A DNA stretch of 64,000 nt, from assembly GCA_045654505.1 (NCBI GenBank), contig JAZONM010000009.1, positions 135 through 64,134 on the forward strand, in the 5' to 3' direction. Shown here piece after piece: positions 5,795 to 60,496 of this stretch (within the stretch, counting starts at the first letter, position 1; each line of letters opens with the position of its first letter). This DNA comes from Clostridia bacterium. GTDB lineage: Bacteria > Bacillota > Clostridia > Christensenellales > UBA1242. The notes under the pieces are model-generated. The model made no database searches, was not told the origin of the DNA, and saw only the letters and a list, made by a program, of their open reading frames with translations. A program made the position numbers and the translations under genes.

Positions 5795-7351
5795 ATGGAA
5801 AAACTTCTTGATTATATAAATAAACAAACCAACAACACTTACAGGTATCTAAAACTTGTAAGTGTTGTTTATGATAAGGATAGTGGAGTTAGTACATTTC
5901 GTTTTATATACGAAAATTGTCTTATGACACAAGCCAATAAAGACCAACTTATCGCACTTATTACTAAGTTTTACAATAATGAATTAAAAGTAGATGTAAA
6001 ATTAAAAAGATCATATCTTGATGATGATGTTATTAGAGAGTGGGTGTACAAGTATCTCCTAGAAAATTGTGCTGTTCTTACCAATTTTAATAAAAAAGAC
6101 ATTGATGTATCAATCTCTGAAAAAAACGTTTTGATTACTATCGTATTGGTCAAAGAAGTTTATGATTATTTCAATAGTATCGGTATGGATAAAAAAATTC
6201 AGACTGAGTGTGATAAAAATTTCTTTGGTGTGTTTAAGGTTTTGTTTAGCGAAATTGAAAACGAGACATTTGAGGATATTCTTGTCAAAAAAGAACGTGA
6301 GATAAATAATATGTACCTTGAGGAAGAAAAAGGGACTTCAAATTATTCGGTTGAGCATTACAAACATGTACTTGGTCCTGAGTGCAAAAATGATATTACA
6401 CCAATTAAGGCGATAAAAGGACCTGTCGAGCATATAGAGGTAGGCGGAAAAGTGCATTATATGCTAAAAAAGACATACATGAAGAAGACAAAAGATAATG
6501 AAGTCGGAGAGGAAAAACCATTTTATAAGTTTGCGCTAAAATATGATGATGCTACCATCAATTGTACATATTTTCCGACAAAGATTGATGGTGACAAAAT
6601 AGAAGATGAAGTGCAAGACGGTGACGAGATAATTGCTGTGGGCAGTGTAGAGTCATACAATGGTAATATAAGCCTTAGAGTAAGGGGTATATCCCAATGT
6701 GTACTTCCAAAAATTGAAGTGAAAGAAGTGGGGCAAAAGGAATGTCCTAAAGAATATGTTTTTGTAAAACCAGAGGATTATGTCAATCCCGTACAAGCCA
6801 ATTTCTTACTGGAGGAAAGGCCTGTAAATGCATTCTTGGCACAAAATGATGTTGTGGTATTTGACTTTGAGACTACAGGACTTGACCACCAAACTTGCGA
6901 GATTATCGAAATAGGTGCGGTGAAAATCAAAAATGGAAAACTAGCCGAGACTTTTTCCACTTTTGTTAAGCCAAAATCGACCATCAGTGAAGAAATAACA
7001 AGCATCACAAGTATTACTAATGAGATGGTAAAAGATGCACCATCTATTGCTGAGGTTTTGCCTGATTTTTATAAATTTTGTCATGATTGTGTTATTGTTG
7101 CATACAATATTGATTTTGACTATAAATTCCTAAATTTTGCAGGCACAAAATTGGGTTATAAATTTACAAATAGGCAAGTAGATGCGCTGTATCTTGCTCG
7201 TCTTAATGTAAAAGGTGCCAAGACTTTCAATCTTAAAAGTATTGCTACTCGTCTTGGTGTAAGTCTTGACAATGCACATAGAGCAATAAATGACGCTATT
7301 GCTACAGCTGAAGTTTTGTTGCTTATAAGCGACAATGTTTCGCCAAATTAA
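5795..7351 (+). CDS. PolC-like N-terminal domain + OB fold + DEDDh 3'-5' exonuclease, no polymerase core
   Basis: C-terminal Exo motifs VVVFDFETTGLD, VAYNIDFDYKFL and AHRAINDAIATAEVL. The central segment GKVHYM...YKFALKYDDATINCTYFP...GDEIIAVGSVESYNGNISLRVRGIS resembles the PolC OB insert. The gene lies in the slot where polC is found in Bacillus. Confidence 0.6.
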   Translation: MEKLLDYINKQTNNTYRYLKLVSVVYDKDSGVSTFRFIYENCLMTQANKDQLIALITKFYNNELKVDVKLKRSYLDDDVIREWVYKYLLENCAVLTNFNKKDIDVSISEKNVLITIVLVKEVYDYFNSIGMDKKIQTECDKNFFGVFKVLFSEIENETFEDILVKKEREINNMYLEEEKGTSNYSVEHYKHVLGPECKNDITPIKAIKGPVEHIEVGGKVHYMLKKTYMKKTKDNEVGEEKPFYKFALKYDDATINCTYFPTKIDGDKIEDEVQDGDEIIAVGSVESYNGNISLRVRGISQCVLPKIEVKEVGQKECPKEYVFVKPEDYVNPVQANFLLEERPVNAFLAQNDVVVFDFETTGLDHQTCEIIEIGAVKIKNGKLAETFSTFVKPKSTISEEITSITSITNEMVKDAPSIAEVLPDFYKFCHDCVIVAYNIDFDYKFLNFAGTKLGYKFTNRQVDALYLARLNVKGAKTFNLKSIATRLGVSLDNAHRAINDAIATAEVLLLISDNVSPN

Positions 7352-15235: not shown

Positions 15236-16132
15236 ATGTTGAGAGAGATTTTGCCAAGTGTAATATATGAAAATTTGAGCCTTTTACCACTTGACTCTAT
15301 AAATGAGATACGTCTTAGAGTGGGGAGTCTTGTAGTGGTAAATGTAGGCGGAGTAAACAATTTTCTTACTTATAGCGGACTTAGTAAAAAGGCTAGTGAG
15401 GGTTTGATTGTCAGAAGTGCAAATATTGACTATATTTTGCAAAAAGTTTCCAACAACTCTCTTTATACAATAAATGACCAATTGATAAATGGGTACATAA
15501 CTTTCAATGGTTTTAGACTTGGTGTGAGTGGCGAATTAGTAGTTGTCGACGGCAAAATCAAAACAATAAAAAATATTACGTCGATAAATATTAGACTACC
15601 GCATGTGGTAAAAAATTGTTGTTTGCCTGTATACAATTTTATTGTGGAGGGTGGGATTAAAAACACTTTAATTATATCTCCTCCTGGCGCTGGAAAAACT
15701 ACATTTATTCGGGATCTTGCTTATCAAATAAATACACATGAAAGCAATCAAAATATATTGATTGTTGATGAAAGAAATGAAATATCAAGTATATTTGATA
15801 AAGAATACTTAAAAGGTATTGATGTATATAAAAATTGCAGTAAAGAGTTTGCTTTTGGGAATGGGATAAGAAGCATGAATCCTAGTGTAATAATAACAGA
15901 TGAGATAGATGTATGCCGTGATATATATTCTATTGAAAATGCTATCACTTCAGGGGTTAAGGTTATTGCAACTTTACATGCAAAGGACATAAATGATTTG
16001 CGTAATAAAAAATCTTTTAAAGAAATGTTGGATGAAGAAATGTGGGAGCGGATAATCGTTCTGGGGACTTCAAATGGTTATGGGACTATAGAAGGAGTAT
16101 ACAACCAACATCTGCGTTGTATTTATGTGTAG
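15236..16132 (+). CDS. spoIIIAA: Stage III sporulation protein AA (ATPase)
   Basis: Walker A motif SPPGAGKTTFIRDLA; first gene of an eight-gene spoIIIA-like operon. Confidence 0.85.
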   Translation: MLREILPSVIYENLSLLPLDSINEIRLRVGSLVVVNVGGVNNFLTYSGLSKKASEGLIVRSANIDYILQKVSNNSLYTINDQLINGYITFNGFRLGVSGELVVVDGKIKTIKNITSINIRLPHVVKNCCLPVYNFIVEGGIKNTLIISPPGAGKTTFIRDLAYQINTHESNQNILIVDERNEISSIFDKEYLKGIDVYKNCSKEFAFGNGIRSMNPSVIITDEIDVCRDIYSIENAITSGVKVIATLHAKDINDLRNKKSFKEMLDEEMWERIIVLGTSNGYGTIEGVYNQHLRCIYV

Positions 16133-16575
16133 TGAAAATAATATTACTGTTGGTTATTTTATGTATTTGCGGATTTTTGGGTCGTCAATTTCAAAAACAA
16201 TATCAGTTGCGCACTCGTCATTATGCCGAACTATTAGAATTTTGTGCGTATTGTAAAAATCAAATATCTTTTCTAAATGTGGATAAAAAAAGTATCTTTA
16301 ATGCTTTTTTATCTAAGAAAGAGACTTTGATTAAAAACTCTGTATTAGGTAAAAAAGTGGGTTATCTTAATTGTGTTGAAATACAAGAAATTGATAGTTT
16401 TTTAAATGCGATTGGAAATTTCGCGGTGGAAGGAGAACTTAAAAATATTGAATATTTCAAAGAAAATTTTTCATTAAAACACGACCTTTGTGAAAAAGAA
16501 GAAAAGACCAAAGGGGTGTTGTGTTTTAAAATGGGATGGTTGTTGGGGCTGCTTCTTTGCATAGTATTATTCTAG
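16132..16575 (+). CDS. spoIIIAB: Stage III sporulation protein AB
   Basis: Assigned by operon position. N-terminal TM followed by a soluble domain. The GTG at 16132 overlaps the spoIIIAA stop by 1 nt; the track start at 16042 would overlap AA by 90 nt. Confidence 0.6.
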   Translation: MKIILLLVILCICGFLGRQFQKQYQLRTRHYAELLEFCAYCKNQISFLNVDKKSIFNAFLSKKETLIKNSVLGKKVGYLNCVEIQEIDSFLNAIGNFAVEGELKNIEYFKENFSLKHDLCEKEEKTKGVLCFKMGWLLGLLLCIVLF

Positions 16576-16618
16576 GTATTATGCAAAAATCAAAGAAACG
16601 ACTTTAAATGGGGGTTTT

Positions 16619-16816
16619 ATGACAATTGATATTATCTTTAAAATTGTAGCGATTGGTATACTTACTGCAGTGGCAAATCAAGTCCTAAAACACTCTGGTA
16701 AGGACGAAATAGCCACTTTGACGACGCTTGCAGGTGTGATTATAGTCTTGTTTATGATTGTCAATATGATAAGCGAACTTTTCACGACGGTCAAAAATCT
16801 TTTCTCTCTGTATTAG
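16619..16816 (+). CDS. spoIIIAC: Stage III sporulation protein AC
   Basis: 65-aa two-TM protein in the expected position. Confidence 0.8.
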   Translation: MTIDIIFKIVAIGILTAVANQVLKHSGKDEIATLTTLAGVIIVLFMIVNMISELFTTVKNLFSLY

Positions 16817-17209
16817 GTGGATATGGAAGTTTTAAAATTGGTAGGTGTAGGGGTTGTAATTTCCATTATTGTTGTTTTGTTAAAACAGGTAAAACCGGAG
16901 TTTTCACTTTTCGCTGTAATTGCTGGAAGTGTATTGATGTTGGTGTATGTGCTCAATTACTTCACAAGTATTTTTTCTGTTTTTACAAATATCATCAATA
17001 AGGCTGGTATCAATTCCCAACTTTTTTCAATTATTATAAAAATAATAGGTGTCGGTTACCTTGTTGAATTTGGTGCATCAATTTGTAATGATAGTGGCAA
17101 TTCTGCTATTGGGGATAAAATAATTTTAGGTGGCAAAATTATTATTTTTGCAATGGCTCTTCCTATTATAACTAATTTGTTTGATTTACTTTTAGGATTA
17201 CTGACATGA
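16817..17209 (+). CDS. spoIIIAD: Stage III sporulation protein AD
   Basis: About 130-aa, four-TM protein. IIKIIGVGYLVEFGASICNDSGNSAIGDKIILGGK matches the SpoIIIAD core. The start is GTG 16817 or ATG 16823. Confidence 0.8.
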   Translation: MDMEVLKLVGVGVVISIIVVLLKQVKPEFSLFAVIAGSVLMLVYVLNYFTSIFSVFTNIINKAGINSQLFSIIIKIIGVGYLVEFGASICNDSGNSAIGDKIILGGKIIIFAMALPIITNLFDLLLGLLT

Positions 17210-18393
17210 GAAAAAAACAATTGTTTTTATTTTTTGCCATCATTATATTTTTTGCTTTTGGTTGTAATTCTATATCTATGCCTAAAAATGATATATGTTA
17301 TGCGGAGGCTTCGGACAAGCCTTTACTGGAAGAGATTGACAAACAGCTTGGTGATTTGGATTTGAGCGAGATTGACGGGCTTGTCGGTGAATTTGAAGAA
17401 CTAACTAAAAAAACCACTTTTGGTGAAGTGGTCAAGAGTCTCATAAATGGTAGTTATGAAATAGAGTATGGCAGCGCGATCAATTTTATATTGAAAAGTA
17501 TTGGTTTGCAATTTACTGCAGTTTTGCCATTGATATCCTCGATTGTTTTGCTTTCAATTCTGGCAAGTCTAATGAAATCCTTTCGTCCTAGCCTCAGTAG
17601 CAAAAGCATATCCGAACTTATCAGCCTTATATGCTATTGTCTTGTTGTGATATTGGTAGTTGCTCTAATGAAAAATCTTTTTGATGTTACGGGAGACACA
17701 TTGTCGTCCATGACGTCACAGATGGAGATAATGTTTCCATTGCTACTTACATTGCTTACTGCCACTGGGGGTATTGTTAGTGTCGGGATTTATACGCCTT
17801 TGGTGTCTACTCTGACGACTGGTGTAGGCGCAATATTCTCGAAAGTTCTTTATCCGATTTGTATGGTCGCATTTATTCTTGTTGTTGTGAGTAATCTTTC
17901 TGACAACATAAAATTGGATAAAATGAGTAAATTTTTGTCCTCTTTTTTTAAGTGGAGTGTGGGTTTTGTATTTACTGTATTTGCAGCCTTTCTTACTATC
18001 CAAGGTATTTCTGCTGGTAAATATGATTCTGTTAGCCTTAAAGCGACGCGTTTTGCTATGAAAAACTCTATACCTATCATTGGTGGATACTTGAGTGATG
18101 GATTGGATTATGTTTTGCTGTCATCTGTTTTGATTAAAAATGCTGTTGGTATGGGTGGACTTATTATTTTGTTTGCGATGATTTTGAGTCCTATTATTAA
18201 GATACTTTTTGTAAAGCTAGCATTTCAATTCACTGCAGGAATACTTGAGCCGGTTTCGGGTGGTAAAATATCCAATTTCTGTGAAGGGTGTAGTAAAGTT
18301 TTGGTTTATCCTTTGGTAGTTATACTTGCAATTTCTTTTATGTATGTGCTTACAATAGGTCTTATTATGTGCACAATGGCTGGTGTTGCATGA
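17206..18393 (+). CDS. spoIIIAE: Stage III sporulation protein AE
   Basis: Large polytopic membrane protein in the operon position. ATGA overlap with spoIIIAD. Confidence 0.8.
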   Translation: MRKKQLFLFFAIIIFFAFGCNSISMPKNDICYAEASDKPLLEEIDKQLGDLDLSEIDGLVGEFEELTKKTTFGEVVKSLINGSYEIEYGSAINFILKSIGLQFTAVLPLISSIVLLSILASLMKSFRPSLSSKSISELISLICYCLVVILVVALMKNLFDVTGDTLSSMTSQMEIMFPLLLTLLTATGGIVSVGIYTPLVSTLTTGVGAIFSKVLYPICMVAFILVVVSNLSDNIKLDKMSKFLSSFFKWSVGFVFTVFAAFLTIQGISAGKYDSVSLKATRFAMKNSIPIIGGYLSDGLDYVLLSSVLIKNAVGMGGLIILFAMILSPIIKILFVKLAFQFTAGILEPVSGGKISNFCEGCSKVLVYPLVVILAISFMYVLTIGLIMCTMAGVA

Positions 18394-18857
18394 GTGCGTG
18401 GTTAATGAGTATTGTGGGTGTTGTTTTTTTAGGTGTTATGATTGATATCATCACTCCTGAGGGTAGAACAAATGCTTTTATAAAAAGTATCTTCGCTGTA
18501 TTTGTCGTATATATTATCGTTTCTCCTGTTGTGACTATGTTTAATAAAAATTATGTTTTTACATACAAGGAAATAGAATTACAAGAGGATTATCTTGATA
18601 GTGTTGCAAAAAGTAATATAATTACTTTAGAGTCTGAAATCCAGCGATTACTTGTAGATAAAGGCTATGAGTGTTTTGTCGAAATAGATGGGAATATGTG
18701 GGGTGAGGCTTTAAATATTAGACAAATCACAATTTTTCTACCAAATAGTGTTCTAATAAATGAGGACAAGCATATAAATAATTGTAAAGTAATAACCCAA
18801 TTGATTAGAAATGTATTGGAGGTGGATGAGGAGATTATTGTATATGAAAGATTATGA
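18390..18857 (+). CDS. spoIIIAF: Stage III sporulation protein AF
   Basis: Assigned by operon position. Two N-terminal TM segments. The ATG at 18390 overlaps the AE stop (ATGA). Confidence 0.65.
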   Translation: MSAWLMSIVGVVFLGVMIDIITPEGRTNAFIKSIFAVFVVYIIVSPVVTMFNKNYVFTYKEIELQEDYLDSVAKSNIITLESEIQRLLVDKGYECFVEIDGNMWGEALNIRQITIFLPNSVLINEDKHINNCKVITQLIRNVLEVDEEIIVYERL

Positions 18858-19473
18858 AAAAAACAATCAAGCCGAAGTGATATCTATTAAAGAAAACATC
18901 ATAGAAAAGTCGGATAAAAATACACTCTTTGATGGATTGAAAAAGAAGATATTGCAGTCAAAAATCTTCAATGTCAAAGGTGTAAAGATATTGCTTCCTC
19001 TTCTCATAATTTTAATCATGGGTGTTATGCTTTTTAGTTTTGACGGGACAAGTTCTGCAAAATCAACAATTGTTACAAATGAAAACATTGGTTATACGAG
19101 TAGTCTAGAATACATTGGGACTATAGAGAAAAAACTGAGCGATGTACTAAGTGCCATTTCAGGTGCAGGTAAAACACAAATTATGATATCAATTGATAGT
19201 AGCCCTATACTCAATGTCGCCACCAACAATGAAGAAAAAACAGTGACGACATCAAGTGGGTATACGACTACGACGACAAATGAGCCTATTATTATCACTG
19301 CAAACGGGAAATCGGAGCCTATGGTTTTGGGAGAAACACTTCCTGAAATTAAGGGGGTGATTGTTGTGAGTAGTGGGGCTAAAGATGTAAGAGTAAAACT
19401 AGATATCATCAATGCAGTGAGGACAGTGCTTGGAATTTCAAGCGAAAAAATAGATGTATTTATAGGAGAGTAA
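18844..19473 (+). CDS. spoIIIAG: Stage III sporulation protein AG
   Basis: N-terminal TM and conserved C-terminus PEIKGVIVVSSGAKDVRVKLDIINAVRTVLGISSEKIDVF. Confidence 0.7.
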   Translation: MKDYEKNNQAEVISIKENIIEKSDKNTLFDGLKKKILQSKIFNVKGVKILLPLLIILIMGVMLFSFDGTSSAKSTIVTNENIGYTSSLEYIGTIEKKLSDVLSAISGAGKTQIMISIDSSPILNVATNNEEKTVTTSSGYTTTTTNEPIIITANGKSEPMVLGETLPEIKGVIVVSSGAKDVRVKLDIINAVRTVLGISSEKIDVFIGE

Positions 19474-19483
19474 GGAGGGGAAT

Positions 19484-19966
19484 ATGACAAAGAAAAAAAG
19501 ATTTTTTATAATAGGTGGTTTTTGTTTGTTGTTGGCAGTGACAGGAGTATTGAATATTTTTCTAAACAATAAGGTGGCAGAATCTACTATGACCAATGGA
19601 AATAATACCATAACAACAGCCAATTTTTTTGCTACATACAAAACGGACAGAACAGCGACTTATGATCAAGAGGTGTCTTATTTGCAAGCAATTATTGATA
19701 GTGATAGCACAACAGATGAAGCCAAATCAAATGCTGAGGCAGAACTTATTCGCATAAATAAAACGATCGAACTACAAACCAATCTTGAGAACAACATTAA
19801 AACAATAGGTTTTAGTGATGTGGTGGTGTCTGCTCTTACCAATAATGTCAATGTAATAGTAAAAGGGACATCTCTTACGGATCAAGAATTGACGCAAATT
19901 GTAAATATTGTCGAAACATGCAGTGATTACGACTTCGAGAATATCAAAATAATTCCCGTAGAATAA
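19484..19966 (+). CDS. spoIIIAH: Stage III sporulation protein AH
   Basis: N-terminal TM. FFATYKTDRTATYDQEVSYLQAII...IKTIGFSDVVV parallels the B. subtilis SpoIIIAH C-terminal domain. AAGGAGGGG RBS. Confidence 0.65.
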   Translation: MTKKKRFFIIGGFCLLLAVTGVLNIFLNNKVAESTMTNGNNTITTANFFATYKTDRTATYDQEVSYLQAIIDSDSTTDEAKSNAEAELIRINKTIELQTNLENNIKTIGFSDVVVSALTNNVNVIVKGTSLTDQELTQIVNIVETCSDYDFENIKIIPVE

Positions 19967-26563: not shown

Positions 26564-27781
26564 ATGTCTGTCAAAAAAGGCTTAAAAATTTCAATATTTC
26601 TGATTGTTTCAACATTATTTATAGTGTTTTGTTTTTCATTCCCTTACCAATTATTTTTCTGTTTTGATGACGAAATGATTTTGACGAAAGACGAATGGTC
26701 CAGAATTTCTGATAATAATTTTTTACATGTTGATAGCATTGAAAAAGCGGTTTCTAATTCAGATGGGCAAAACCCTATTGATGAGTATATTGTAAAATAT
26801 AATCTCTTTAATCTATTCAATATAACATCACTTAAAGTAAAGGTGGTGGAAGACAATATGGTATATGTGGGTGGAGATGTAATGGGTTTTTCTTTAAAGA
26901 GTAAGGGTGTAGTTGTCGTAGGTGGAAACTATATAATTACAAAAGATGGTAAAAGAAACCCTATGGATGAATCAGGATTTTTGAGTGGTGATCGAATAAT
27001 AATGATTGATGGTAAAGATATCAATAATGTGGGTGATATTGGAGAAATTTTGTCCGCATGTGATGGTGGAGCTGTGTCGGTGGTTGTTGTTAGAAATGGC
27101 AAACAGCATAACCTTAAAGTCCAACCAGCACTTGACATCCTTACAAATTCCTACAAACTTGGGTTGTGGATAAAGGAAGATGCTGTAGGTGTGGGCACTT
27201 TGACTTACATCAAGCCTAATGATTTTCGATTTGGATCTCTTGGTCACTCAATAAATAATGGTAATACCGACGAGATACTAGAAATAAGTGATGGAAATGT
27301 TTACGAATGTAATGTTATAGGTGTAAAAAGAGGCAAGAGTGGAGTGCCTGGAGAATTGATTGGAATGTTTTCTCAAAAAGATCCTCAAGGAAATATTGAT
27401 AAAAACAATATGTTTGGTGTGTTTGGCTACATGGATGAGAAATCCTCCTTTCTTTCGGGTAAAGAAAAAATTGGTGTTGGGGGTAGAATGTCGGCGCGTC
27501 CAGGCAAGGCGACAATTTTATCTTGTATTGACGGAGTGTCGGTAGAAGAATATGACATTGAAATTATCAAAACCAATTATCAGTCCTCGGGTAGTGATAA
27601 AAGCATGATTTTTCGTGTGACGGATAAAGAGCTTCTTCAAAAAACAGGTGGTATAGTACAGGGTATGAGTGGTAGTCCTATTATACAGAATGGTAAGATA
27701 ATTGGTGCTGTTACGCATGTATTTGTCAATGATCCGTCTAAGGGCTCGGGACTTTATATAGATTGGATGTTGGCGGAATAG
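26564..27781 (+). CDS. spoIVB: SpoIVB signalling serine peptidase (S55)
   Basis: N-terminal anchor, a PDZ-like segment (GDRIIMIDGKDI), catalytic region GTLTYI...GHSI and GMSGSPIIQNGKIIGAVTHV. Confidence 0.85.
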   Translation: MSVKKGLKISIFLIVSTLFIVFCFSFPYQLFFCFDDEMILTKDEWSRISDNNFLHVDSIEKAVSNSDGQNPIDEYIVKYNLFNLFNITSLKVKVVEDNMVYVGGDVMGFSLKSKGVVVVGGNYIITKDGKRNPMDESGFLSGDRIIMIDGKDINNVGDIGEILSACDGGAVSVVVVRNGKQHNLKVQPALDILTNSYKLGLWIKEDAVGVGTLTYIKPNDFRFGSLGHSINNGNTDEILEISDGNVYECNVIGVKRGKSGVPGELIGMFSQKDPQGNIDKNNMFGVFGYMDEKSSFLSGKEKIGVGGRMSARPGKATILSCIDGVSVEEYDIEIIKTNYQSSGSDKSMIFRVTDKELLQKTGGIVQGMSGSPIIQNGKIIGAVTHVFVNDPSKGSGLYIDWMLAE

Positions 27782-27852
27782 TGTTGTAAATTGTCGGAAA
27801 ATTAAGTAAATTGTAAAAATTAAAACTCTTTGTAAAAAATTGTACAAAAATG

Positions 27853-27881
27853 TTGATTTTTATTCTTTATCTTTGTATAAT
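27853..27881 (+). promoter_or_regulatory. sigmaA-type promoter inside the annotated 5' end of the Spo0A-like ORF
   Basis: TTGATT (27853-27858), 17-nt spacer, TATAAT (27876-27881). This argues that translation starts at the ATG at 27910, not 27850. Confidence 0.5.
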
Positions 27882-27909
27882 GTCTATATTTAAAAATTGG
27901 GATAAAGAT

Positions 27910-28665
27910 ATGGAAGATATATGTAGTTTGTTTTACTCAAAAAACAATATTGTTTTGGGTAAAAGGATAAAGGAAAATCTAGCAAAATTTGGTTTTGAAA
28001 TAAACTATTCAAGTAGTCTTGCTGATATTGTTGACTTGGTGAGTAATGGCAATCGTACCTTAATATTTGTAGATAAAGTTTTTAAAAAATACAAGAATCT
28101 TATTTTCGAACTTACTAAAAGTAAACTTTTCAATAATGTATTAGTTGTTTTTGTAGATGACGATTCGAATTATTATTCTGACTTTTTAGATTCAAACAAT
28201 TTTTTCATTATTTCTGAAAAGGAATTTGAAAAAGAATTGGGAGGAATTTTGCGTTCGTGCAGGACTTATATTTCCAATAAACACTCAATCAATATGTTTA
28301 TGGTTTCGGATATTGTATCGGGATATTTATCAAAACTTGGTTTTTCGCCAAAACATGCGGGTTATAGATATATAAAACAGTGCATTGAGTATGCAATTCA
28401 AAATTCTTTTTCAATTGGTAAAGCTTTATACAAAGACACATATTTATTTGTTGCTCGAAAAAATAATGGAAGTTGTGCAAGCATCGAAAGGAATATTAGA
28501 AATGCTATAAATCAAGCACGACTTAATACAGGATTTGATGTTGATGGTTTTCCTGACTTATCCAATAAAAAAATAACCAATAGATATTTTCTTTCATATC
28601 TTGTTGATAAATTGAGCAATAATGAAAGCATTTATGAACACAATAATACAAACAATGTCGGCTAA
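27910..28665 (+). CDS. spo0A: Spo0A-type sporulation transcription factor with atypical receiver domain
   Basis: The C-terminal half matches Spo0A_C (GFSPKHAGYRYIKQCIEYAI; SCASIERNIRNAINQA; ITNRYFLSYLVDKL). The gene is directly downstream of spoIVB, as in Bacilli and Clostridia. The N-terminal 115 aa is receiver-like but divergent (see findings). Confidence 0.75.
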   Translation: MEDICSLFYSKNNIVLGKRIKENLAKFGFEINYSSSLADIVDLVSNGNRTLIFVDKVFKKYKNLIFELTKSKLFNNVLVVFVDDDSNYYSDFLDSNNFFIISEKEFEKELGGILRSCRTYISNKHSINMFMVSDIVSGYLSKLGFSPKHAGYRYIKQCIEYAIQNSFSIGKALYKDTYLFVARKNNGSCASIERNIRNAINQARLNTGFDVDGFPDLSNKKITNRYFLSYLVDKLSNNESIYEHNNTNNVG

Positions 28666-28703: not shown

Positions 28704-29327
28704 ATGAAGGATTATACAAAGTATCGAAATTCATATAGGCTTGGAAGTGAAATTGGTACCTTTTTTAAGCACTATAAAAAGATAATAATTTTACTTCTTT
28801 TTCTTGCGCTTCTGGGTATTGTGGCAGGTATATTTACATCTACAAAATATTCGGGCAGCCTTGAACTTGATAATATACCTGATAAAAATTTGGTAGACTT
28901 TATATCAAATGATAAAGGAAGTTTTGGTACATTTTTTGCCTATGCAATAAAGTATTTAATCATAATATTACTTATCATATTTCTCAATATAAACACCTTT
29001 TTTTCAATTGTAAATGTGGTATATATTTTTGTGTTTGGCTATCAGGTAGGTTTTACTGTATATGCCATAATTGCTCTTTACTCTTTTGCGGGTATTGTCA
29101 ATTCGATTATCATAATAATACCTTTCCAATTACTCTTGCTTGCCATTTTGATATTGATAAGTGCTTTATCTATAAATAAAAACAAGATTGTATGTAGGTA
29201 TGGGAGATTGCCTTTTTGCAATAATTACAAACAAATTTACTTGGTGCTTAGCCTGTTGTTTTTTTCTGTGCTCTTTATTTGGTGTATGATTTTGCCTATA
29301 ATAAAAATAACAATTATTATCAATTAA
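28704..29327 (+). CDS. Polytopic membrane protein, SpoIIM-like (stage II sporulation protein M family)
   Basis: 207 aa with about 5 TM segments. The N-terminal cytoplasmic segment followed by TM resembles SpoIIM. spoIIM lies near drm/deoB and punA in B. subtilis. The assignment rests on architecture and synteny only. Confidence 0.45.
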   Translation: MKDYTKYRNSYRLGSEIGTFFKHYKKIIILLLFLALLGIVAGIFTSTKYSGSLELDNIPDKNLVDFISNDKGSFGTFFAYAIKYLIIILLIIFLNINTFFSIVNVVYIFVFGYQVGFTVYAIIALYSFAGIVNSIIIIIPFQLLLLAILILISALSINKNKIVCRYGRLPFCNNYKQIYLVLSLLFFSVLFIWCMILPIIKITIIIN

Positions 29328-31321: not shown

Positions 31322-33592
31322 ATGAGAAAAAGGTGGTTGGCAAGTTTAATATGCTTTATTATGCTGTCTTCAGTGGTTCTTTTTTCGGCGTGTACTGGAG
31401 GTAGTGATGCTACTTCTGATACAGACCCAAAATTACAAGGAATACTTGATAGTGTAGAGGAAGGTGTAGATTTTGAAGCCTTTACATACACTTACTATGA
31501 CGCAGATGGCAGAAAATTGTTGGGCAGTGCATTTAAAGAGGCATATGTCTTTGTAGATCCAGGCTCGGATGGCTTATATTATGATAAAAAGACTAAGTCC
31601 ACCATAACTTTTGCCGATATGGCTGAAAGAGAAGCTGATACATTGGCACAAAACCTTGCACATAGACTTATAGCTACTTATGGCGATCATACTATAGCAG
31701 ATATCGTGATAAGTGAGGAGATAAAGGAAGGGATTGACACAAATTTAAGTGCAGATGTTCTGGAAAGTGATTATAGTATTAGATTTAATACAGCTAATGC
31801 TTTAGGTGAAAATATAAAGGAAAATACACAATTTAAAGATGAAGTTATAAATGAAAGTACTCCTTCAAGATATTTTTTAAATGACGAATACCTACTATCC
31901 TTGCTTATGGGCATACATGATGTGACTGAAGCAGGAGTACCACAAGCTGTTTTAGATGACTTTGCTGTTCTTAAAAAGTTTATTGTATTAGATGAGATAG
32001 TAAAAGAAGGTGAGACACCTGAAAATGTTGTTGTTATGTCGGGTGCTGGTTTTGATGCAACAATAAATAAAGAAGTTGAAATTATTGCTTCCACAGCTAC
32101 AGCTAACACTGATCATGAATGGGAGATTATGAAATCAGGATCTTCCGACCCTATATTTGATGTTTTGAAAAACCAACTTGTAGAAATAATTCTTCAAGTA
32201 AAATCTGGATTAAGTATGAGCTATGAGAATATAGATCATCTTGGTTTTACAAAAAATGATCTTACATATCTTAAGTCTTTGATTATTGAGAATATAATCG
32301 GCGAAGCCAACTATGAATACGATATGGAGGGTTTTGAGGCGATACTAGATGCTTCGTCAAATCAAATATCAAATGCTGATTATTATGTTACATTAAATAA
32401 AGACGATGCTGAAAACATTCGAATCAATGGCTCAAGTCAGTTTGAAACCGAATATCAAAACATCAAGGCTAAATATGCTTCAATCAAATCGGAGAAAGAA
32501 GATTTGGATGAGATGCTTGCTTCATTAGGGGCATCTGATGATACTTATAAAGCCGCATTAGAAGAATATAATAGAAATTATGAATTGTATATTCAAAATT
32601 ATAATACTTTTATGTCAGACCATGTCACTCAAGATTATATTAAAATGCTAAACTACAAAGGTTATGATGTGGCATTGGATGCAATGATAGAATCTGCATT
32701 AAATAGTCCTCAATTTATTCTTGAGGAGGCTATTCCTGAAGAAGGTGTAGGTGCTGAAAGTCTTTATCCTATATTTCCGCGTATTCAAGTATTGATTGTT
32801 CCTGGAATGTATCTGGGTGGTGAATATGACGAATCAATGGAAGAAGATTTGGAAGAAGATGAAGAAGGTAATTATGATTATGAGGACATGGCAAATAAAT
32901 CTGAGTTTGATGCGACTCAAGAGCCAGTCACAACAATGGAACCATATCTTCCTTTTTGGAAAATATTGTCTATTGTTTATAAACCGGACGATGTATATGG
33001 TGTAAATAATGTTACTAGTGAGCAAATAAATGGAATTATTATCCCTGATATGGATATAGCATTTGTCGGTGAGGTCGGATACACTTCAATGATTGAAAGT
33101 ACAATATCATATGTTGTGGGCGGGAATGAAGTTATACCACCTGGTGAAAAATTTGTAACTGATGAGCTTGTTGATGATGTTTGTCCTGATATGACTGCTT
33201 CTGATTATCCAGATAATCACTATATTTCATTATTTGACCTTTTAAAAACGGAAAAGGAAGACCTAAACAACTATGTTATGGGGGCATACAATGGTGTAGA
33301 CATTAAGACACTTGCCGAGACCAATGATCAAATAAAGATTGGCAAAATAACAACAAGTGATGGCACAGTATACTACGAGCAAGTTGATGGTTTGCCAGTT
33401 GATGAAAATTTCATTACACTTGTTGAGACTGAAAGTGGAAATGTAATCAGTATGCCGGGTTTGGGTGAAAACTATCTAAAGCTTGATATTAACTTTAACA
33501 AGATTACCACGACTAATGGCGCTGATGTTACAAATACTAAAAAACGTACAGAATTAGGTATTATTACAGTAGAGCCACATACTGCATCTTAA
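31322..33592 (+). CDS. Large acidic lipoprotein, function unknown
   Basis: Signal peptide plus lipobox (MRKRWLASLICFIMLSSVVLFSAC). 756 aa, Asp/Glu-rich, with an acidic patch EEDLEEDEEGNYDYED. No family recognised. Own extended -10 element (TGATATAAT) and a strong terminator. Confidence 0.65.
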   Translation: MRKRWLASLICFIMLSSVVLFSACTGGSDATSDTDPKLQGILDSVEEGVDFEAFTYTYYDADGRKLLGSAFKEAYVFVDPGSDGLYYDKKTKSTITFADMAEREADTLAQNLAHRLIATYGDHTIADIVISEEIKEGIDTNLSADVLESDYSIRFNTANALGENIKENTQFKDEVINESTPSRYFLNDEYLLSLLMGIHDVTEAGVPQAVLDDFAVLKKFIVLDEIVKEGETPENVVVMSGAGFDATINKEVEIIASTATANTDHEWEIMKSGSSDPIFDVLKNQLVEIILQVKSGLSMSYENIDHLGFTKNDLTYLKSLIIENIIGEANYEYDMEGFEAILDASSNQISNADYYVTLNKDDAENIRINGSSQFETEYQNIKAKYASIKSEKEDLDEMLASLGASDDTYKAALEEYNRNYELYIQNYNTFMSDHVTQDYIKMLNYKGYDVALDAMIESALNSPQFILEEAIPEEGVGAESLYPIFPRIQVLIVPGMYLGGEYDESMEEDLEEDEEGNYDYEDMANKSEFDATQEPVTTMEPYLPFWKILSIVYKPDDVYGVNNVTSEQINGIIIPDMDIAFVGEVGYTSMIESTISYVVGGNEVIPPGEKFVTDELVDDVCPDMTASDYPDNHYISLFDLLKTEKEDLNNYVMGAYNGVDIKTLAETNDQIKIGKITTSDGTVYYEQVDGLPVDENFITLVETESGNVISMPGLGENYLKLDINFNKITTTNGADVTNTKKRTELGIITVEPHTAS

Positions 33593-45082: not shown

Positions 45083-45110
45083 AAAATCGCTTTTTGGGGC
45101 GATTTTTTTT
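45083..45110. terminator. Bidirectional terminator (HAD gene / sigF)
   Basis: Stem AAATCGC / GCGATTT flanked by A-rich and T9 tracts. Confidence 0.6.
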
Positions 45111-45835
45111 TAGCATAAGACCTCTTTTAGTTTTTTTAATATTTTACTTTCAAGTCTGCTTATTTGCACTTGCGAAACTCCAAGTTCTTCAGCAATTTCT
45201 TTTTGTGTCTTGTCTCTGAAATAACGAAGTATGATTATTTTCTTATCCCTTGGTGGTAAATGCTCGATAATTTTGTAAAGTGTGTGGTTGTCTATATCGT
45301 TTTCGATAGGTTGATCATTTTCTACTCGGTCTATTAGATACATGTCTTTTCCATCGTCTTCGTCACCAATTGTTGTGTTTAGAGATACTATTTGTTTTGA
45401 ACTTTCCATTGCGTATACGACTTCATTACTATCTATGCCAAAATATTTTGCTATTTCCTCTACAGTAGGAGATTTTTCGTTAGTGCTTGTGTATTCGTCT
45501 ACATATTTATTGATTTTCACGGCTAAGGTTTTTATTTTTCTTGATATTTTAATAATTCCGTTATCTCTCAAAAATCTTTTGATTTCACCAGCTATCATTG
45601 GTACGGCGTATGTCGAGAATTTTACATTAAATGATTTGTCAAAATTATTGATTGCTTTTAAAAAACCAAGACTGCCTAATTGAAATAAGTCGTCATAGTC
45701 TATGCCTTTATTGAGATATATTTTAATAACACTTTTAATAAGTGGAGAATTTTCACTTACTAATTTTTCTTTTGCATCTATATTATTCTTTTGCGCCTCT
45801 TCGATCAATTCGAGGGTGCGTGATGCATCAAGCAT
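45110..45835 (-). CDS. sigF: Sporulation sigma factor F
   Basis: Sigma-70 regions 2-4 (DDLFQLGSLGFLKAINNFD; KFSTYAVPMIAGEIKRFLRD; TQKEIAEELGVSQVQISRLE), downstream of spoIIAA/AB. GGAGG precedes the ATG at 45835. Confidence 0.85.
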   Translation of the reverse strand: MLDASRTLELIEEAQKNNIDAKEKLVSENSPLIKSVIKIYLNKGIDYDDLFQLGSLGFLKAINNFDKSFNVKFSTYAVPMIAGEIKRFLRDNGIIKISRKIKTLAVKINKYVDEYTSTNEKSPTVEEIAKYFGIDSNEVVYAMESSKQIVSLNTTIGDEDDGKDMYLIDRVENDQPIENDIDNHTLYKIIEHLPPRDKKIIILRYFRDKTQKEIAEELGVSQVQISRLESKILKKLKEVLC

Positions 45836-45836
45836 T

Positions 45837-46283
45837 TCAACCTCCCACAACCATATTCATAACTCCTACTTTTTTGTACATGGACACGATTACGCCTTTA
45901 TTAGGTGATGATATAACTTGTACACTGTCCATAAATCCTTCCATTACTGTAAAACCCATACCGCTACGTTCGGTTTCGGGTTTTGATGTGTAGAAGGGTT
46001 GTTTTGCCTGGTCAATGTCCTCAATGCCAATGCCATAATCTGTAACAGTTATGTAGACGTCATTGTCGGATATTTTTACGTTTACTATTACATCCCCTGT
46101 AGTTTTAGGGTAGGCGTGTACTATCGAATTGGTAATTGCTTCGCTTAAGGCTGTTTTTATATCGCCAATTTCTTCAATTGTCGGATTGATATTGGAGACA
46201 AAACTTGCGACACTAAGACGTGCAAAGCTTTCATTTTCCTTTATTGCGCTAAAACGTAGCGTCATTTCATTATTGTATGACAT
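45837..46283 (-). CDS. spoIIAB: Anti-sigma F factor (serine kinase) SpoIIAB
   Basis: GHKL ATPase motifs (LSEAITNSIVHAY; DYGIGIED; ERSGMGFTVM). Confidence 0.9.
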   Translation of the reverse strand: MSYNNEMTLRFSAIKENESFARLSVASFVSNINPTIEEIGDIKTALSEAITNSIVHAYPKTTGDVIVNVKISDNDVYITVTDYGIGIEDIDQAKQPFYTSKPETERSGMGFTVMEGFMDSVQVISSPNKGVIVSMYKKVGVMNMVVGG

Positions 46284-46292
46284 AATGTCCTC

Positions 46293-46601
46293 CTAGCTGA
46301 TTTTAGGCATGATTTCATATAGCCCGCTCATATTAAATATTTTTTCAATCTGTGAATTTGCATTTGTGATATATATGCTTTTATTTTTGTTTTTAAGAGC
46401 TTTGTATCGACCAATTAGTACGCCGATGCCGGTACTGTCCATGAATTCGAGTTGTGATAGGTCATATATTAGTTTATTGAAAGAAGTTTCCTTTATTATT
46501 TTATCAAGTATTTGTCGTGTATAATTTGCTGTATATTCGTCCAATTCGCCGCATAACATTATATATAGAGTGTTGTTGTACACTTTCTTTTTTATTTGCA
46601 T
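46293..46601 (-). CDS. spoIIAA: Anti-anti-sigma factor SpoIIAA (STAS)
   Basis: STAS domain with the phosphorylatable Ser context (FMDSTGIGVLIGRYK). AAGGAGG precedes the ATG at 46601. Confidence 0.85.
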   Translation of the reverse strand: MQIKKKVYNNTLYIMLCGELDEYTANYTRQILDKIIKETSFNKLIYDLSQLEFMDSTGIGVLIGRYKALKNKNKSIYITNANSQIEKIFNMSGLYEIMPKIS

Positions 46602-46663
46602 TTTATCCTCCTTCATGTTTATTTCATTATATCAAAATAATGTTTGCATATTTTTAGAGGTAT

Positions 46664-46670
46664 TGTCGAA
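46664..46670. promoter_or_regulatory. Perfect Spo0A-box heptamer upstream of spoIIAA
   Basis: TGTCGAA on the plus strand (TTCGACA on the gene strand), about 65 nt upstream of the spoIIAA start. Confidence 0.4.
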
Positions 46671-46785: not shown

Positions 46786-46862
46786 CGGGGTGTAGCGCAG
46801 TTTGGTAGCGCACTTGATTTGGGATCAAGGGGCCGGGAGTTCGAGTCTCTTCACCCCGACCA
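46786..46862 (+). tRNA. tRNA-Pro (anticodon TGG)
   Basis: Acceptor stem CGGGGTG/CACCCCG, anticodon loop TTTGGGA, T-loop GGGAGTTCGAGTCTCTT, encoded CCA. Confidence 0.9.
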
Positions 46863-46881
46863 ATATCTTTATGATAAAAGA

Positions 46882-46958
46882 GGGCGTTTAGCTCAGTTGG
46901 TTAGAGCAACCGGCTCATAACCGGTCGGTCCGGGGTTCAAGTCCCTGAACGCCCACCA
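46882..46958 (+). tRNA. tRNA with anticodon CAT (elongator Met or lysidine-modified Ile2)
   Basis: Acceptor stem GGGCGTT/AACGCCC and anticodon arm ACCGG-CTCATAA-CCGGT. The paired 1:72 position argues against an initiator. The overall sequence resembles Bacillus tRNA-Ile(CAU). Confidence 0.85.
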
Positions 46959-46971
46959 CATTTTTAACTAT

Positions 46972-47048
46972 GGCCTGGTAGTTCAGCTGGTTAGAACGCT
47001 AGCGTGTCACGCTAGAGGTCGAGGGTTCGAGTCCCTACCAGGTCGCCA
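46972..47048 (+). tRNA. tRNA-Asp (anticodon GTC)
   Basis: Acceptor stem GGCCTGG/CCAGGTC, anticodon loop GTGTCAC, encoded CCA. Confidence 0.9.
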
Positions 47049-47058
47049 TTCATAATGT

Positions 47059-47134
<76 letters not shown>

Positions 47135-47166
47135 TTTATGAGTTTTAATTAAATATTTTGTTTTGT

Positions 47167-47242
<76 letters not shown>

Positions 47243-47283
47243 TTTTTAGCTATTGCATTTTTACTACAATGGTTAAAAAAATC

Positions 47284-47368
47284 GGGAGGTTTGCAGACCG
47301 GCCAAATGCAACAGACTGTAAATCTGTCGTCTCAGACTTCGGTGGTTCGAATCCACCACCTCCCACCA
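47284..47368 (+). tRNA. tRNA-Tyr (anticodon GTA, long variable arm)
   Basis: Acceptor stem GGGAGGT/ACCTCCC, anticodon arm ACAGA-CTGTAAA-TCTGT, a 13-nt variable arm, encoded CCA. Confidence 0.9.
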
Positions 47369-50399: not shown

Positions 50400-50519
50400 A
50401 AAGAAATAAAAAATCGACTTTGTGTCGATTTTTTTTGTTTATAGTGTATTGATTCCATTGTTTACTGTGCCTTGATTGATAATATCAAGCATTGTGTTGT
50501 AACCATAGGTATTTGTATT
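50400..50519. repeat. Direct repeat copy B (terminator plus intact 3' end of the 749-aa gene)
   Basis: See copy A. It includes the bidirectional hairpin AAAAAATCGAC / GTCGATTTTTT (50408-50436). Confidence 0.75.
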
Positions 50520-52688
50520 ATTATTTCGATTCATGTTGTTTTGGATTGTATTTCCATTATTGCCGTACTCAGCATTATTGTTTGTGCCATTGTTTTTTAT
50601 TTCGCCGTCATTAGTATAGTAATAACCGCCATATCCGTCATTATTGTTTAGATTGTTTTGATTGATGACTGAGTTTTTGTAGATATTATCATTGATGAGA
50701 TTTCCGCCTGCTGTTCCGTTGATTATGTTTTCGTCGTTTGCGATACTATTGCTGAAGGCATTGTTGTTTGTGTTGCTTGGCACGGGATTTGTGTTGTCGA
50801 ATGCAGGGTTTGGAATGTCGTTTATTGTGTTGTTTGTGTCAATATTGTTCTCTGCATTTTCATTTACAATATTTTCGGAGTTGTTTTCTTCTGTAATACT
50901 ATCGCTACTGTCATCTTCTGATGGACGGTATGTGTCTATATTTTTAATAGTATTTTTTTCTTTATTCTCTAAATCATTGTCTATGTTTTCATTTTTTGTA
51001 GTACTATATTCATTTTCATTTTTGACGTCTTGGTTTGCTAAACTATCTTCCTCAATCGATTCAGTTGTTGAATCGGAGTGAGTAGGGTCAATTACCACGA
51101 TTTCAATTTCTTCGTTTTCTATTTTGTCTAGTAATTCATTATTTGTGTTTACGCTATTATCAGTGTGTTGATTATTACTGTCTGCTTTTTGAGCAATGTC
51201 AATATCTGTCTCAGAGTCATTCACAGTATTATCGTCTTCATTGAGATTGTTGTCAGTTGTGTTATCTTGAATATCTATTGTATTGTTATCAATAATATCG
51301 TCTGGCGTTGATTCGTAAACATTGTTATTGTTTAGTTCGTCAATTATTTGATCGATTTCTTGGTCGCTGACATCTGATTGATTTAATGCATCTTCAAGCA
51401 AATATCGAATTTGCTCAAGGGTTGCTATTGCACTTTCGTGATATGTTATTCGTGTGTCAAGGTGATTGATAAGTTTCATATAATTGCTATTCAGTACATC
51501 AACACTTGATGCGATTGATGTTGGCACATTGCTATTGATTGTTGTGATTTCATTTTCCAAATCACCATTACAATTTTTCAATCTTTTTATTATTGTCTTA
51601 ATGTCTTGTATATAATTATTTATTGCTTGAAGTTGTTGGATAGTGGGTGCACATTCACCATTGATAATACAATTATTTAGGTCGCGAACTTCGTCGATTG
51701 TGTCAAGAAGTTCTACTTTAGTGATTCTCAAGACATTGTTGGCTTCTAAAGCGTCTTCGGTCATTGCGTATAATCTTTGTACTTTGTATAGATAATTTGA
51801 CAATTGGTCATTGATATTTGATTCATTATATTCGCTTACAAATCTAGGATTATATCTTAGTTTTAATGGTCGAAAACTATCAGTGGTGAAGTAATACATT
51901 TTGATTTTATCAGTAGTACTTTTCTCATTGTCGGCAAGTGTTTCATTATTAGATTCTTCAATTGATTCGTCTTTTACGGTGTCTGTAATTGAGGTTGTAT
52001 TCTCGTCTGTAGGGTTATCTTCTATTGGAATAATTTCATAGTTTTTATCAAAAGTAGGATCTTCGATAAATTCATAATCTACTGGATTTTCCTTTAAAGT
52101 TTTGTTTTCTATGGTGCTATCGATATTTATATGTTGGGGCTTATAAGATGTTGATTGAGTTTTTTCTATAAGATAACTTTTATTACATGAATCACAGATG
52201 TTTTCATTATTTAAACATAACTTATTTTCACAGTAGCGACAATTTCCATTTTCGTCACAAAGTATGCCTTGATTGCAATTATTGCAGAACCCGTTTTCGT
52301 CGCAGGAGTATGTGTTGTTGCAGTTGTTGCAATAACCGTTGTTGTTTAAGCTTAGTCTTTCTTGTATTTCATTTTTCATAATGTTATCTAAAGAAATGTT
52401 GGTATTTTCATCATCTGTTTGTTTGATTGTCTTACTAAAATTATTACTAAATACGGATAACATTTCGTTGTTTTTACTCATATTTATTGTTTTTTGCACA
52501 CTGTATATATCTGGGTTGTTTATATAGTTGTTGTCAATAGTATCTAAGTTGTTGACAACAGAATATAGTTTGTTTAAATTTGCATTAAGTTTTTTGCTTG
52601 TATTTTCTTGTGTATCTGAGTTTGCGCATCCACATATAAATATAGATGTTAGTGCTATAGATATAGCTGATATTATTATTTTTTTCAT
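50439..52688 (-). CDS. Asn/Asp-rich lipoprotein with CxxC repeat block, function unknown
   Basis: Signal peptide plus lipobox (MKKIIISAISIALTSIFICGC). Cys block CNNCNNTYSCDENGFCNNCNQGILCDENGNCRYCENKLC...CDSC, a central predicted helical region, and a long N/D/E/T low-complexity tail. GGAGG RBS. Confidence 0.65.
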   Translation of the reverse strand: MKKIIISAISIALTSIFICGCANSDTQENTSKKLNANLNKLYSVVNNLDTIDNNYINNPDIYSVQKTINMSKNNEMLSVFSNNFSKTIKQTDDENTNISLDNIMKNEIQERLSLNNNGYCNNCNNTYSCDENGFCNNCNQGILCDENGNCRYCENKLCLNNENICDSCNKSYLIEKTQSTSYKPQHINIDSTIENKTLKENPVDYEFIEDPTFDKNYEIIPIEDNPTDENTTSITDTVKDESIEESNNETLADNEKSTTDKIKMYYFTTDSFRPLKLRYNPRFVSEYNESNINDQLSNYLYKVQRLYAMTEDALEANNVLRITKVELLDTIDEVRDLNNCIINGECAPTIQQLQAINNYIQDIKTIIKRLKNCNGDLENEITTINSNVPTSIASSVDVLNSNYMKLINHLDTRITYHESAIATLEQIRYLLEDALNQSDVSDQEIDQIIDELNNNNVYESTPDDIIDNNTIDIQDNTTDNNLNEDDNTVNDSETDIDIAQKADSNNQHTDNSVNTNNELLDKIENEEIEIVVIDPTHSDSTTESIEEDSLANQDVKNENEYSTTKNENIDNDLENKEKNTIKNIDTYRPSEDDSSDSITEENNSENIVNENAENNIDTNNTINDIPNPAFDNTNPVPSNTNNNAFSNSIANDENIINGTAGGNLINDNIYKNSVINQNNLNNNDGYGGYYYTNDGEIKNNGTNNNAEYGNNGNTIQNNMNRNNNTNTYGYNTMLDIINQGTVNNGINTL

Positions 52689-60422: not shown

Positions 60423-60496
60423 TGGCAGGGGCGGTAGGAATCGAACCCACCTCAGGAGTTTTGGAGACTCTTATTCTACCGATGAACTACGCCCCT
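60423..60496 (-). tRNA. tRNA-Trp (anticodon CCA)
   Basis: The reverse complement AGGGGCGTAGTTCATCGGTAGAATAAGAGTCTCCAAAACTCCTGAGGTGGGTTCGATTCCTACCGCCCCTGCCA closely parallels Bacillus tRNA-Trp. Acceptor stem AGGGGCG/CGCCCCT, anticodon loop CTCCAAA. Confidence 0.9.

Follow-up and report, generated by a model that had tools for sequence, protein, structure and literature searches.

All endospore formers have been stated to activate Spo0A by phosphorylation of a conserved aspartate (PMC11210211), and surveys treat this protein as a standard regulator that combines a receiver (REC) with a Spo0A_C output domain (PMC6136694; preprint 10.1101/2022.02.25.481979). The open question in Clostridia has so far been which kinases phosphorylate Spo0A, the master transcription factor that initiates sporulation. 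In this study, we have analyzed a spo0A-like gene (27910..28665, + strand) in a 64,000-nucleotide (nt) stretch of a contig from a Clostridia bacterium, the whole of which we call the window (G+C content of about 33%). The encoded protein (251 amino acids, aa) retains the Spo0A DNA-binding domain, and its receiver-like domain has lost four of the five residues of phosphotransfer, the acceptor Asp alone being kept. Our preferred reading, to which we give a probability of roughly 0.6, is that this gene encodes the orthologous Spo0A of its lineage and that its receiver would have turned into an atypical, phosphorylation-independent module.

Canonical Spo0A dimerises and is freed from inhibition upon phosphorylation, and its DNA-binding domain, once isolated, binds DNA in the unphosphorylated state; together with constitutive mutants, this domain indicates that the output is not intrinsically dependent on phosphorylation once receiver control has been altered (PMC3485338). 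These mutants and the isolated domain are laboratory constructs, whereas the change that we describe here is natural, ancient and clade-wide. The sad alleles are such constitutively active Spo0A mutants. In receivers, phosphotransfer depends on Mg2+ bound by an acidic pair, a Lys and a Thr stabilise the phosphoryl group, and loss of the acidic pair, the Lys and the Thr is a hallmark of atypical, phosphorylation-independent regulators. HP1043, ChxR, GlnR of actinomycetes, NblR, FrzS and BldM/WhiI are examples in which the receiver fold is kept and the catalytic residues are lost, as in the window protein, and GlnR and NblR also keep the acceptor Asp, but not as a phosphorylation site. We know of no atypical regulator that is fused to a Spo0A_C output domain or that controls sporulation. 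Atypical receivers are well known as a class, and an aspartate-less receiver (ALR) class has been described (PMC4395418). The strict definition of the latter, absence of the acceptor Asp, does not extend to the window protein, which keeps D55, although several members of its family do lack this residue.

When set beside the canonical Spo0A of B. subtilis, G. stearothermophilus and C. difficile (PF00072 plus PF08769), the window protein shares the slot next to spoIVB, the order of the two domains, the ER-x-IR-x-AI helix, a CheY-like N-terminal fold (as predicted), the acceptor Asp and the Asn that follows the acidic pair, as well as candidate 0A-type boxes upstream of both spoIIAA and the gene itself. 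It differs by having Lys-Asn, Asp and Ser in place of Asp-Asp, Thr and Lys, by having no match to PF00072 and by the disappearance of the MP-x-x-DG stretch after the acceptor. The linker is also short, with about 8 modelled residues, and this hints that the two domains may be more tightly coupled.

The initial annotation had placed the gene in an open reading frame (ORF) at 27850-28665 (+ strand). This frame is real, and its translation contains all the strings that had been quoted from it, but its first ATG (27850) is probably not the start, so that the longest ORF (271 aa) would begin 60 nt too early. We favor ATG 27910 because the best promoter of the region falls within the first 30 nt of the longer ORF and because the homologs open at this point: in 9 of 10 homologs, the Met aligned with ATG 27910 is the start or stands beside it (ME[DEK], or a few residues off in two shorter proteins). 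The 20-codon N-terminal extension of the longest ORF (27850..27909, + strand), which overlaps the promoter, would therefore be spurious. Residue numbers given below count from 27910.

The C-terminal half can be recognized by both sequence and fold. Residues 137-235 (28318..28614, + strand) form a Spo0A_C DNA-binding and transcription-activation domain, found with Pfam, phmmer and Foldseek. PF08769 scores 49.5 bits against a cut-off of 25 (E 4.7e-13) and is the sole Pfam domain of the protein; phmmer against the PDB retrieves the Spo0A C-domain structures 1LQ1 and 1FC3 (E 1.6e-4), to which the AlphaFold2 model also compares in Foldseek, with a target-normalised template-modeling (TM) score of 0.68-0.79 and an identity of only about 25%. 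Within this domain, ERNIRNAI (residues 193-200, 28486..28509, + strand) is aligned with ERAIRHAI of B. subtilis, the signature (recognition) helix of Spo0A, and none of its eight residues varies among the close homologs. This agrees with the effector-domain hallmarks that the initial annotation had noticed, and the DNA specificity of Spo0A is probably kept. The domain has diverged all the same: the full-length equivalog TIGR02875 reaches only 28.9 bits against a cut-off of 200, with a match confined to residues 135-256 of the 271-aa ORF.

The N-terminal domain comprises residues 1-120 (27910..28269, + strand). Pfam gives no Response_reg (PF00072) match in it, even at E<=10, and no receiver was retrieved with NCBIfam, with phmmer against the PDB or with a profile of the N-domain against the PDB at E<=10. 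Its relation to receivers becomes visible only through profile-profile comparison and structure prediction, AlphaFold2, Foldseek and hhalign all pointing to a pseudo-receiver with a (beta-alpha)5, CheY-like fold. Modeled alone, the domain is predicted as (beta-alpha)5 with strands at 4-9, 31-34, 49-55, 77-82 and 98-101, with a predicted local distance difference test (pLDDT) of 87 and a predicted TM score (pTM) of 0.83; pLDDT ranged from 83 to 87 over the AlphaFold2 runs. Foldseek returned mostly receivers for this model (TM 0.6-0.7, with weak E-values of at least 0.025), including PhoB, DivK and SLN1 and also the known pseudo-receivers FrzS, KaiA-N and TadZ. Finally, 97 N-domains of the family were compared by hhalign with a set of canonical receivers (B. 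subtilis Spo0A, together with CheY, Spo0F and eight canonical hits of the Spo0A type), which gave a probability of 95.5% with an E-value of 1.5e-8. Judged by profile and by predicted structure, the N-domain is a descendant of the Spo0A receiver in which the CheY-like fold is kept.

The same hhalign comparison maps the residues of the pocket, which we give with B. subtilis Spo0A numbering for the canonical positions. K11-N12 (27940..27945, + strand) stand in place of the Mg-binding pair D10-D11, followed by N13 at the position of N12, so that this Asn is kept; D55 (28072..28074, + strand) is aligned with the phospho-acceptor D56; D83 (28156..28158, + strand), next to the conserved D84, replaces the conserved T86; and S102 (28213..28215, + strand) replaces the conserved K108. 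The initial annotation had proposed a receiver-like N-terminal domain with an Asp at the acceptor place and with the rest of the pocket gone. The predicted fold and the alignment of D56 with D55 bear out the first part, T86 does fall on the first Asp of VVFVDDD as had been suggested, and no Lys stands at the position of K108, K104 two residues further on not being conserved. For the acidic pair, the claim that neither position is acidic stands in the profile alignment, but the mapping had been one residue off (S-K, where the alignment has K-N).

These substitutions are not peculiar to one genome. A word-indexed search retrieved 10 homologs with 51-81% identity, all annotated with Spo0A_C alone, and a second such search with a broad alignment gave 16 hits, with a name for one, and added little. 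With an exhaustive profile search, 724 proteins were retrieved at E<=1e-3, with a full-length match in about 100 of the best 150 cluster representatives (clusters at 50% identity), and we counted residues in a MAFFT alignment of 97 of these. Pfam recognizes Spo0A_C in 96 of the 97 and Response_reg in 3. Neither position of the acidic pair is acidic in 62 representatives and both are in only 4; about a third of the family has one acidic residue at the second position. The acceptor position is Asp in 84 (87%), one of E, N, G, A, S or K in 12, and a gap in 1; the Thr position has Thr or Ser in 24, and the Lys position has Lys in 7. No representative keeps all five phosphotransfer residues, and 83 keep two or fewer. 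The substitutions are lineage-wide, being common to the 10 close homologs and to about 90 further representatives from independent samples. Nearly all members are unnamed metagenome proteins; one GenBank entry, named 'MAG: sporulation initiation factor Spo0A C-terminal domain-containing protein [Christensenellal...', is an exception.

The replacement of the acceptor itself deserves attention. It is Glu in P0003, a protein 81% identical to that of the window and found in two samples, and also in P0013, P0018 and P0076; it is Asn in P0019, whose gene occupies the same spoIVB slot, and Gly, Ala, Ser or Lys in seven others. Such natural variation speaks against the retained Asp as a phosphorylation site. 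That a protein of this family would receive no conventional phosphorelay input is an inference, which is strengthened because the family naturally replaces its acceptor Asp with Glu, Asn, Gly, Ala, Ser or Lys. At the same time, the domain has conserved features of its own. In a near-identical set of 100 representatives, Ser or Thr is found at position 10 (83%), Asn at 13 (62%) and D, E or N at 84 (82%), and Phe53 is conserved as well. The resulting signature consists of [FY]-[ST]-x-x-N following strand 1, [FY]-[ILV]-x-D following strand 4 and, between them, F-[IV]-D at strand 3. By receiver topology, it lies at the old active-site end of the sheet. Against its closest relatives, the N-domain shows a ratio of nonsynonymous to synonymous substitution rates (dN/dS) of 0.09-0.11 (Nei-Gojobori, with dS near saturation), and with this ratio of about 0.1, the domain is under purifying selection and is not decaying.

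The gene can also be followed by its position. The order argR-recN-spoIVB-spo0A is the classical neighborhood of spo0A, and argR-recN-spoIVB followed by our gene is the order seen in the window, in agreement with the slot that had been assigned to it. In every fetched locus with upstream sequence, the gene stands next to spoIVB, and the order recN, spoIVB, spo0A-like gene, SpoIIM-like gene is shared by the window and by eight loci in seven other lineages (L001, L007, L009, L010, L013, L015, L016, L017), with protein identity ranging from 81% down to about 24%. In the long loci, L001 (59% identity, on a 111-kb contig of a metagenome-assembled genome, MAG), L010 (P0024, on a 1.03-Mb contig), L016 (P0019) and L017 (P0026), the genes upstream are spoIIIAE-AH, asp23, nusB, xseAB, proS, argR, recN and spoIVB, and the SpoIIM-like gene downstream is followed by dacB, an M50 protease gene, scpAB and ytfJ. 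The core of this gene order is present in L013 and L015, which are shorter, and L007 and L009 (about 24% identity), the latter labelled Christensenellales, have spoIVB, the gene, the SpoIIM-like gene and a phosphopentomutase-like gene. A scan of a genome collection gave one close species representative, labelled only 'uncultured Clostridia bacterium', and three that are distant, of which one has the label Christensenellales. The position of the gene across lineages supports the view that it is the orthologous Spo0A of its lineage.

The DNA upstream of the gene carries elements that are also shared with its relatives. A sigma-70-like promoter, TTGATT-17-TATAAT (27853-27881, + strand; -35 at 27853-27858 and -10 at 27876-27881), matches 10 of 12 consensus positions, more than any other in the region; L013 and L015 have the same -35/-10 block, and in L001 the -10 is kept while the -35 is TTGCGA. 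Further upstream, 118 nt from the start, a 0A-box-like TGTCGGA (27792..27798, + strand) keeps G2, C4 and G5 of TGTCGAA, the bases that Spo0A contacts in the 0A box (PMC3485338). At the same position in relatives (-117 to -123), there is a perfect TGTCGAA in L013, a TGTCGGA in L015 and a tandem in L001, TGTCGGAaaaTGTCGCA, that is, TGTCGGA-aaa-TGTCGCA with a 3-bp spacer. The conservation of a 0A-like box 5' of the gene's own promoter suggests autoregulation. Just upstream of the -35, an A-rich 11-mer, TTTGTAAAAAA (27829..27839, + strand), has its single exact match in the window and also occurs 5' of the orthologous gene in L001, L010, L016, L017, L007 and L009, where the proteins are only about 25-60% identical. 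This element could be an UP element or the site of a regulator. A second copy, TTGTA(C)AAAAA, follows it by one helical turn in the window, in L001 and in L010. Elsewhere in the window, the spoIIAA start is preceded, at a distance of about 50-65 nt, by a perfect 0A box (46664..46670, - strand), which reads TGTCGAA on the + strand and TTCGACA on the spoIIAA strand; it is the only intergenic one noted among the nine exact TGTCGAA of the window. We regard these boxes as positional hints of autoregulation and of a retained regulon, not as proof.

The sporulation machinery around the gene, which the initial annotation had described as looking intact, was found as full-length ORFs with mostly strong Pfam or NCBIfam matches. 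It comprises spoIIIAA-AH (15236-19966), spoIVB directly upstream of the gene (26564..27781, + strand; Peptidase_S55 and PDZ, 259.9 bits), spoIIAA-spoIIAB-sigF (45110-46616, - strand), spoVAC, spoVAD (478 bits), yunB and ytfJ. Carboxypeptidases of the dacB/dacF type are also encoded in the window. Some of these proteins remain below NCBIfam equivalog cut-offs, as seen for SigF (45110-45850, - strand; 279.6 bits against 321) and SpoIIIAG (18811-19473, + strand; 75.6 against 147.7), and we consider that the lineage is generally divergent and that automated sporulation-gene calls may under-report it. Among the 59 window ORFs that were scanned (about 13, mostly short, were left out), none encodes a histidine kinase, a receiver, Spo0F, Spo0B or a second Spo0A_C.

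How such a protein would work can be proposed by analogy with other atypical response regulators. The receiver would serve as a phosphorylation-independent dimerisation or regulatory module, in which Asp55 would be a structural negative charge and not a phospho-acceptor. Whether a cell sporulates would then depend on the amount of Spo0A, through the conserved sigma-A-type promoter together with the conserved 0A-like box and A-rich element. Instead of this, or in addition to it, a partner or a ligand could act on the remodelled pocket (S10, N13, D55, D84) in place of a kinase or phosphorelay. The targets would probably still be 0A-box promoters such as that of spoIIA. Some of our own data weigh against this reading. 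Asp55 is retained more often than expected for a residue without a role, which leaves a certain probability to some form of phosphorylation. How the two domains are oriented to each other is uncertain in the AlphaFold2 model (pTM 0.62). With 9 exact 0A boxes in the window against 6.4 expected, there is no enrichment; the 0A evidence is thin, and it is because of this lack of enrichment that we have used only the two positional cases.

The high frequency of Asp at the acceptor position speaks for the main alternative explanation, in which Asp55 would still be phosphorylated within a remodelled pocket that holds the metal, for example, on Asp55, Asp83/Asp84 and Asn12/Asn13, the phosphoryl group coming from an unusual kinase or a small-molecule donor. 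This would fit with the conservation of the polar residues S10, N13 and D84 at the C-terminal ends of strands 1, 3 and 4, which is the place of the active site in receivers, and with the single acidic residue that part of the family has at the second position of the pair. We consider it unlikely all the same: the stabilising Lys is absent in 93% of the representatives and Thr/Ser in 75%, the acceptor is replaced in 12 of them, including the 81%-identical relative and a syntenic one, and acidic side chains so close to the acceptor would be expected to repel a phosphoryl group unless bridged by a metal. It is improbable, too, that the window gene is a diverged paralog with another or an accessory role, a canonical spo0A being present elsewhere in the genome. 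Paralogs of spo0A do occur, in 11 of 118 Spo0A-positive genomes, all of them Clostridiales (Galperin et al. preprint 10.1101/2022.02.25.481979), and the very low TIGR02875 score would be in keeping with this idea. However, the ancestral slot next to spoIVB is occupied by this gene in every sampled lineage across a very deep divergence, no second Spo0A_C was detected among the scanned ORFs of the window or among the genes called over about 20 kb in each of L001, L010, L016 and L017, and the recognition-helix signature is kept.

A further explanation would see the protein as a relic, the receiver simply decaying while sporulation is being lost in the lineage. Many Spo0A-positive Clostridia do not sporulate, one tool predicts that most Christensenellales MAGs are non-sporulating (PMC12536801), and the sub-threshold scores of other sporulation proteins in the window could be read in the same way. 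We nevertheless hold a relic to be very improbable, given a dN/dS of about 0.1 in the N-domain, a confident fold prediction, a conserved signature that is specific to the family and the full length and mostly strong domain scores of the products of the spoIIIA operon, spoIVB, the spoIIA operon, spoVAC/AD, yunB and ytfJ. Random decay of the receiver was rejected on conservation and dN/dS. As for an artefact of sequencing, assembly or start-site choice, the longest ORF does begin 60 nt early, but the same residues are found in ten close homologs and in about 90 distant representatives from independent samples, and the chance of an artefact is negligible. Moving the start to 27910 leaves the pocket unchanged and restores no acidic residue, and no frameshifted or alternative reading yields the DD, T and K residues; a sequencing artefact, too, was rejected on conservation and dN/dS.

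If the lineage's orthologous Spo0A does have a phosphorylation-independent receiver, it would have replaced the input by phosphorelay or orphan kinases, which has until now been regarded as universal among endospore formers. To the rule of universal phosphorylation, a large natural clade without the phosphotransfer pocket in its Spo0A would provide a counter-example, and it would illustrate the rewiring of a developmental master switch. More broadly, and as a tentative proposal that we hold at slightly below even chances, a deeply branching clade of mostly uncultured gut Clostridia, at least some labelled Christensenellales, would rely on a never-phosphorylated Spo0A to start forming endospores, the input being the level of Spo0A or a ligand or partner acting on the remodelled receiver. 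In the literature that we searched, no description of a Spo0A with a pseudo-receiver, an atypical receiver or a degenerate receiver was found, in line with the initial annotation, to which no such protein was known. The finding is broader than that annotation, which concerned one gene, in that the sequences gathered here characterise a large clade. It also has a practical side. Marker models miss these proteins or label them only 'Spo0A C-terminal domain-containing protein', and because marker-based prediction relies on such models, the sporulation potential of these abundant gut lineages may be misjudged. Furthermore, the natural acceptor variants (Asp, Glu, Asn, Gly) make the question of phosphorylation directly testable.

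Several other features were observed in the window and among the search results. Directly downstream of the spo0A-like gene, the SpoIIM-like gene (28704-29327, + strand) encodes a membrane protein of 207 aa with a weak match of 20 bits, below the cut-off, and in related loci such a gene always stands 3' of the spo0A-like gene. The hits of the profile search include proteins of 350-850 aa with two to five Spo0A_C-like stretches (for example P0049, P0054, P0092, P0099) and many short proteins (100-190 aa) with Spo0A_C only, whose origin could be phage or paralogs. The slot of polC, after the M50 protease gene and before rimP-nusA-infB, holds a gene for a 518-aa protein (5795-7351, + strand) whose only domains are an OB fold and a DEDDh exonuclease, the latter matching residues 418-587 of the 1445 of PolC (180 bits against a cut-off of 873); it has no polymerase domain, and the next gene begins 160 nt further on. 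Two large ORFs, at 31322-33592 (+ strand, 756 aa) and 50439-52688 (- strand, 749 aa), match no Pfam or NCBIfam family, and the former has a syntenic, domain-less counterpart of 650-765 aa in L001, L010, L013, L016 and L017. Finally, a cluster of six tRNA genes (46786-47365, + strand) adjoins the spoIIA operon, and one more tRNA gene lies at 60426-60496 (- strand).

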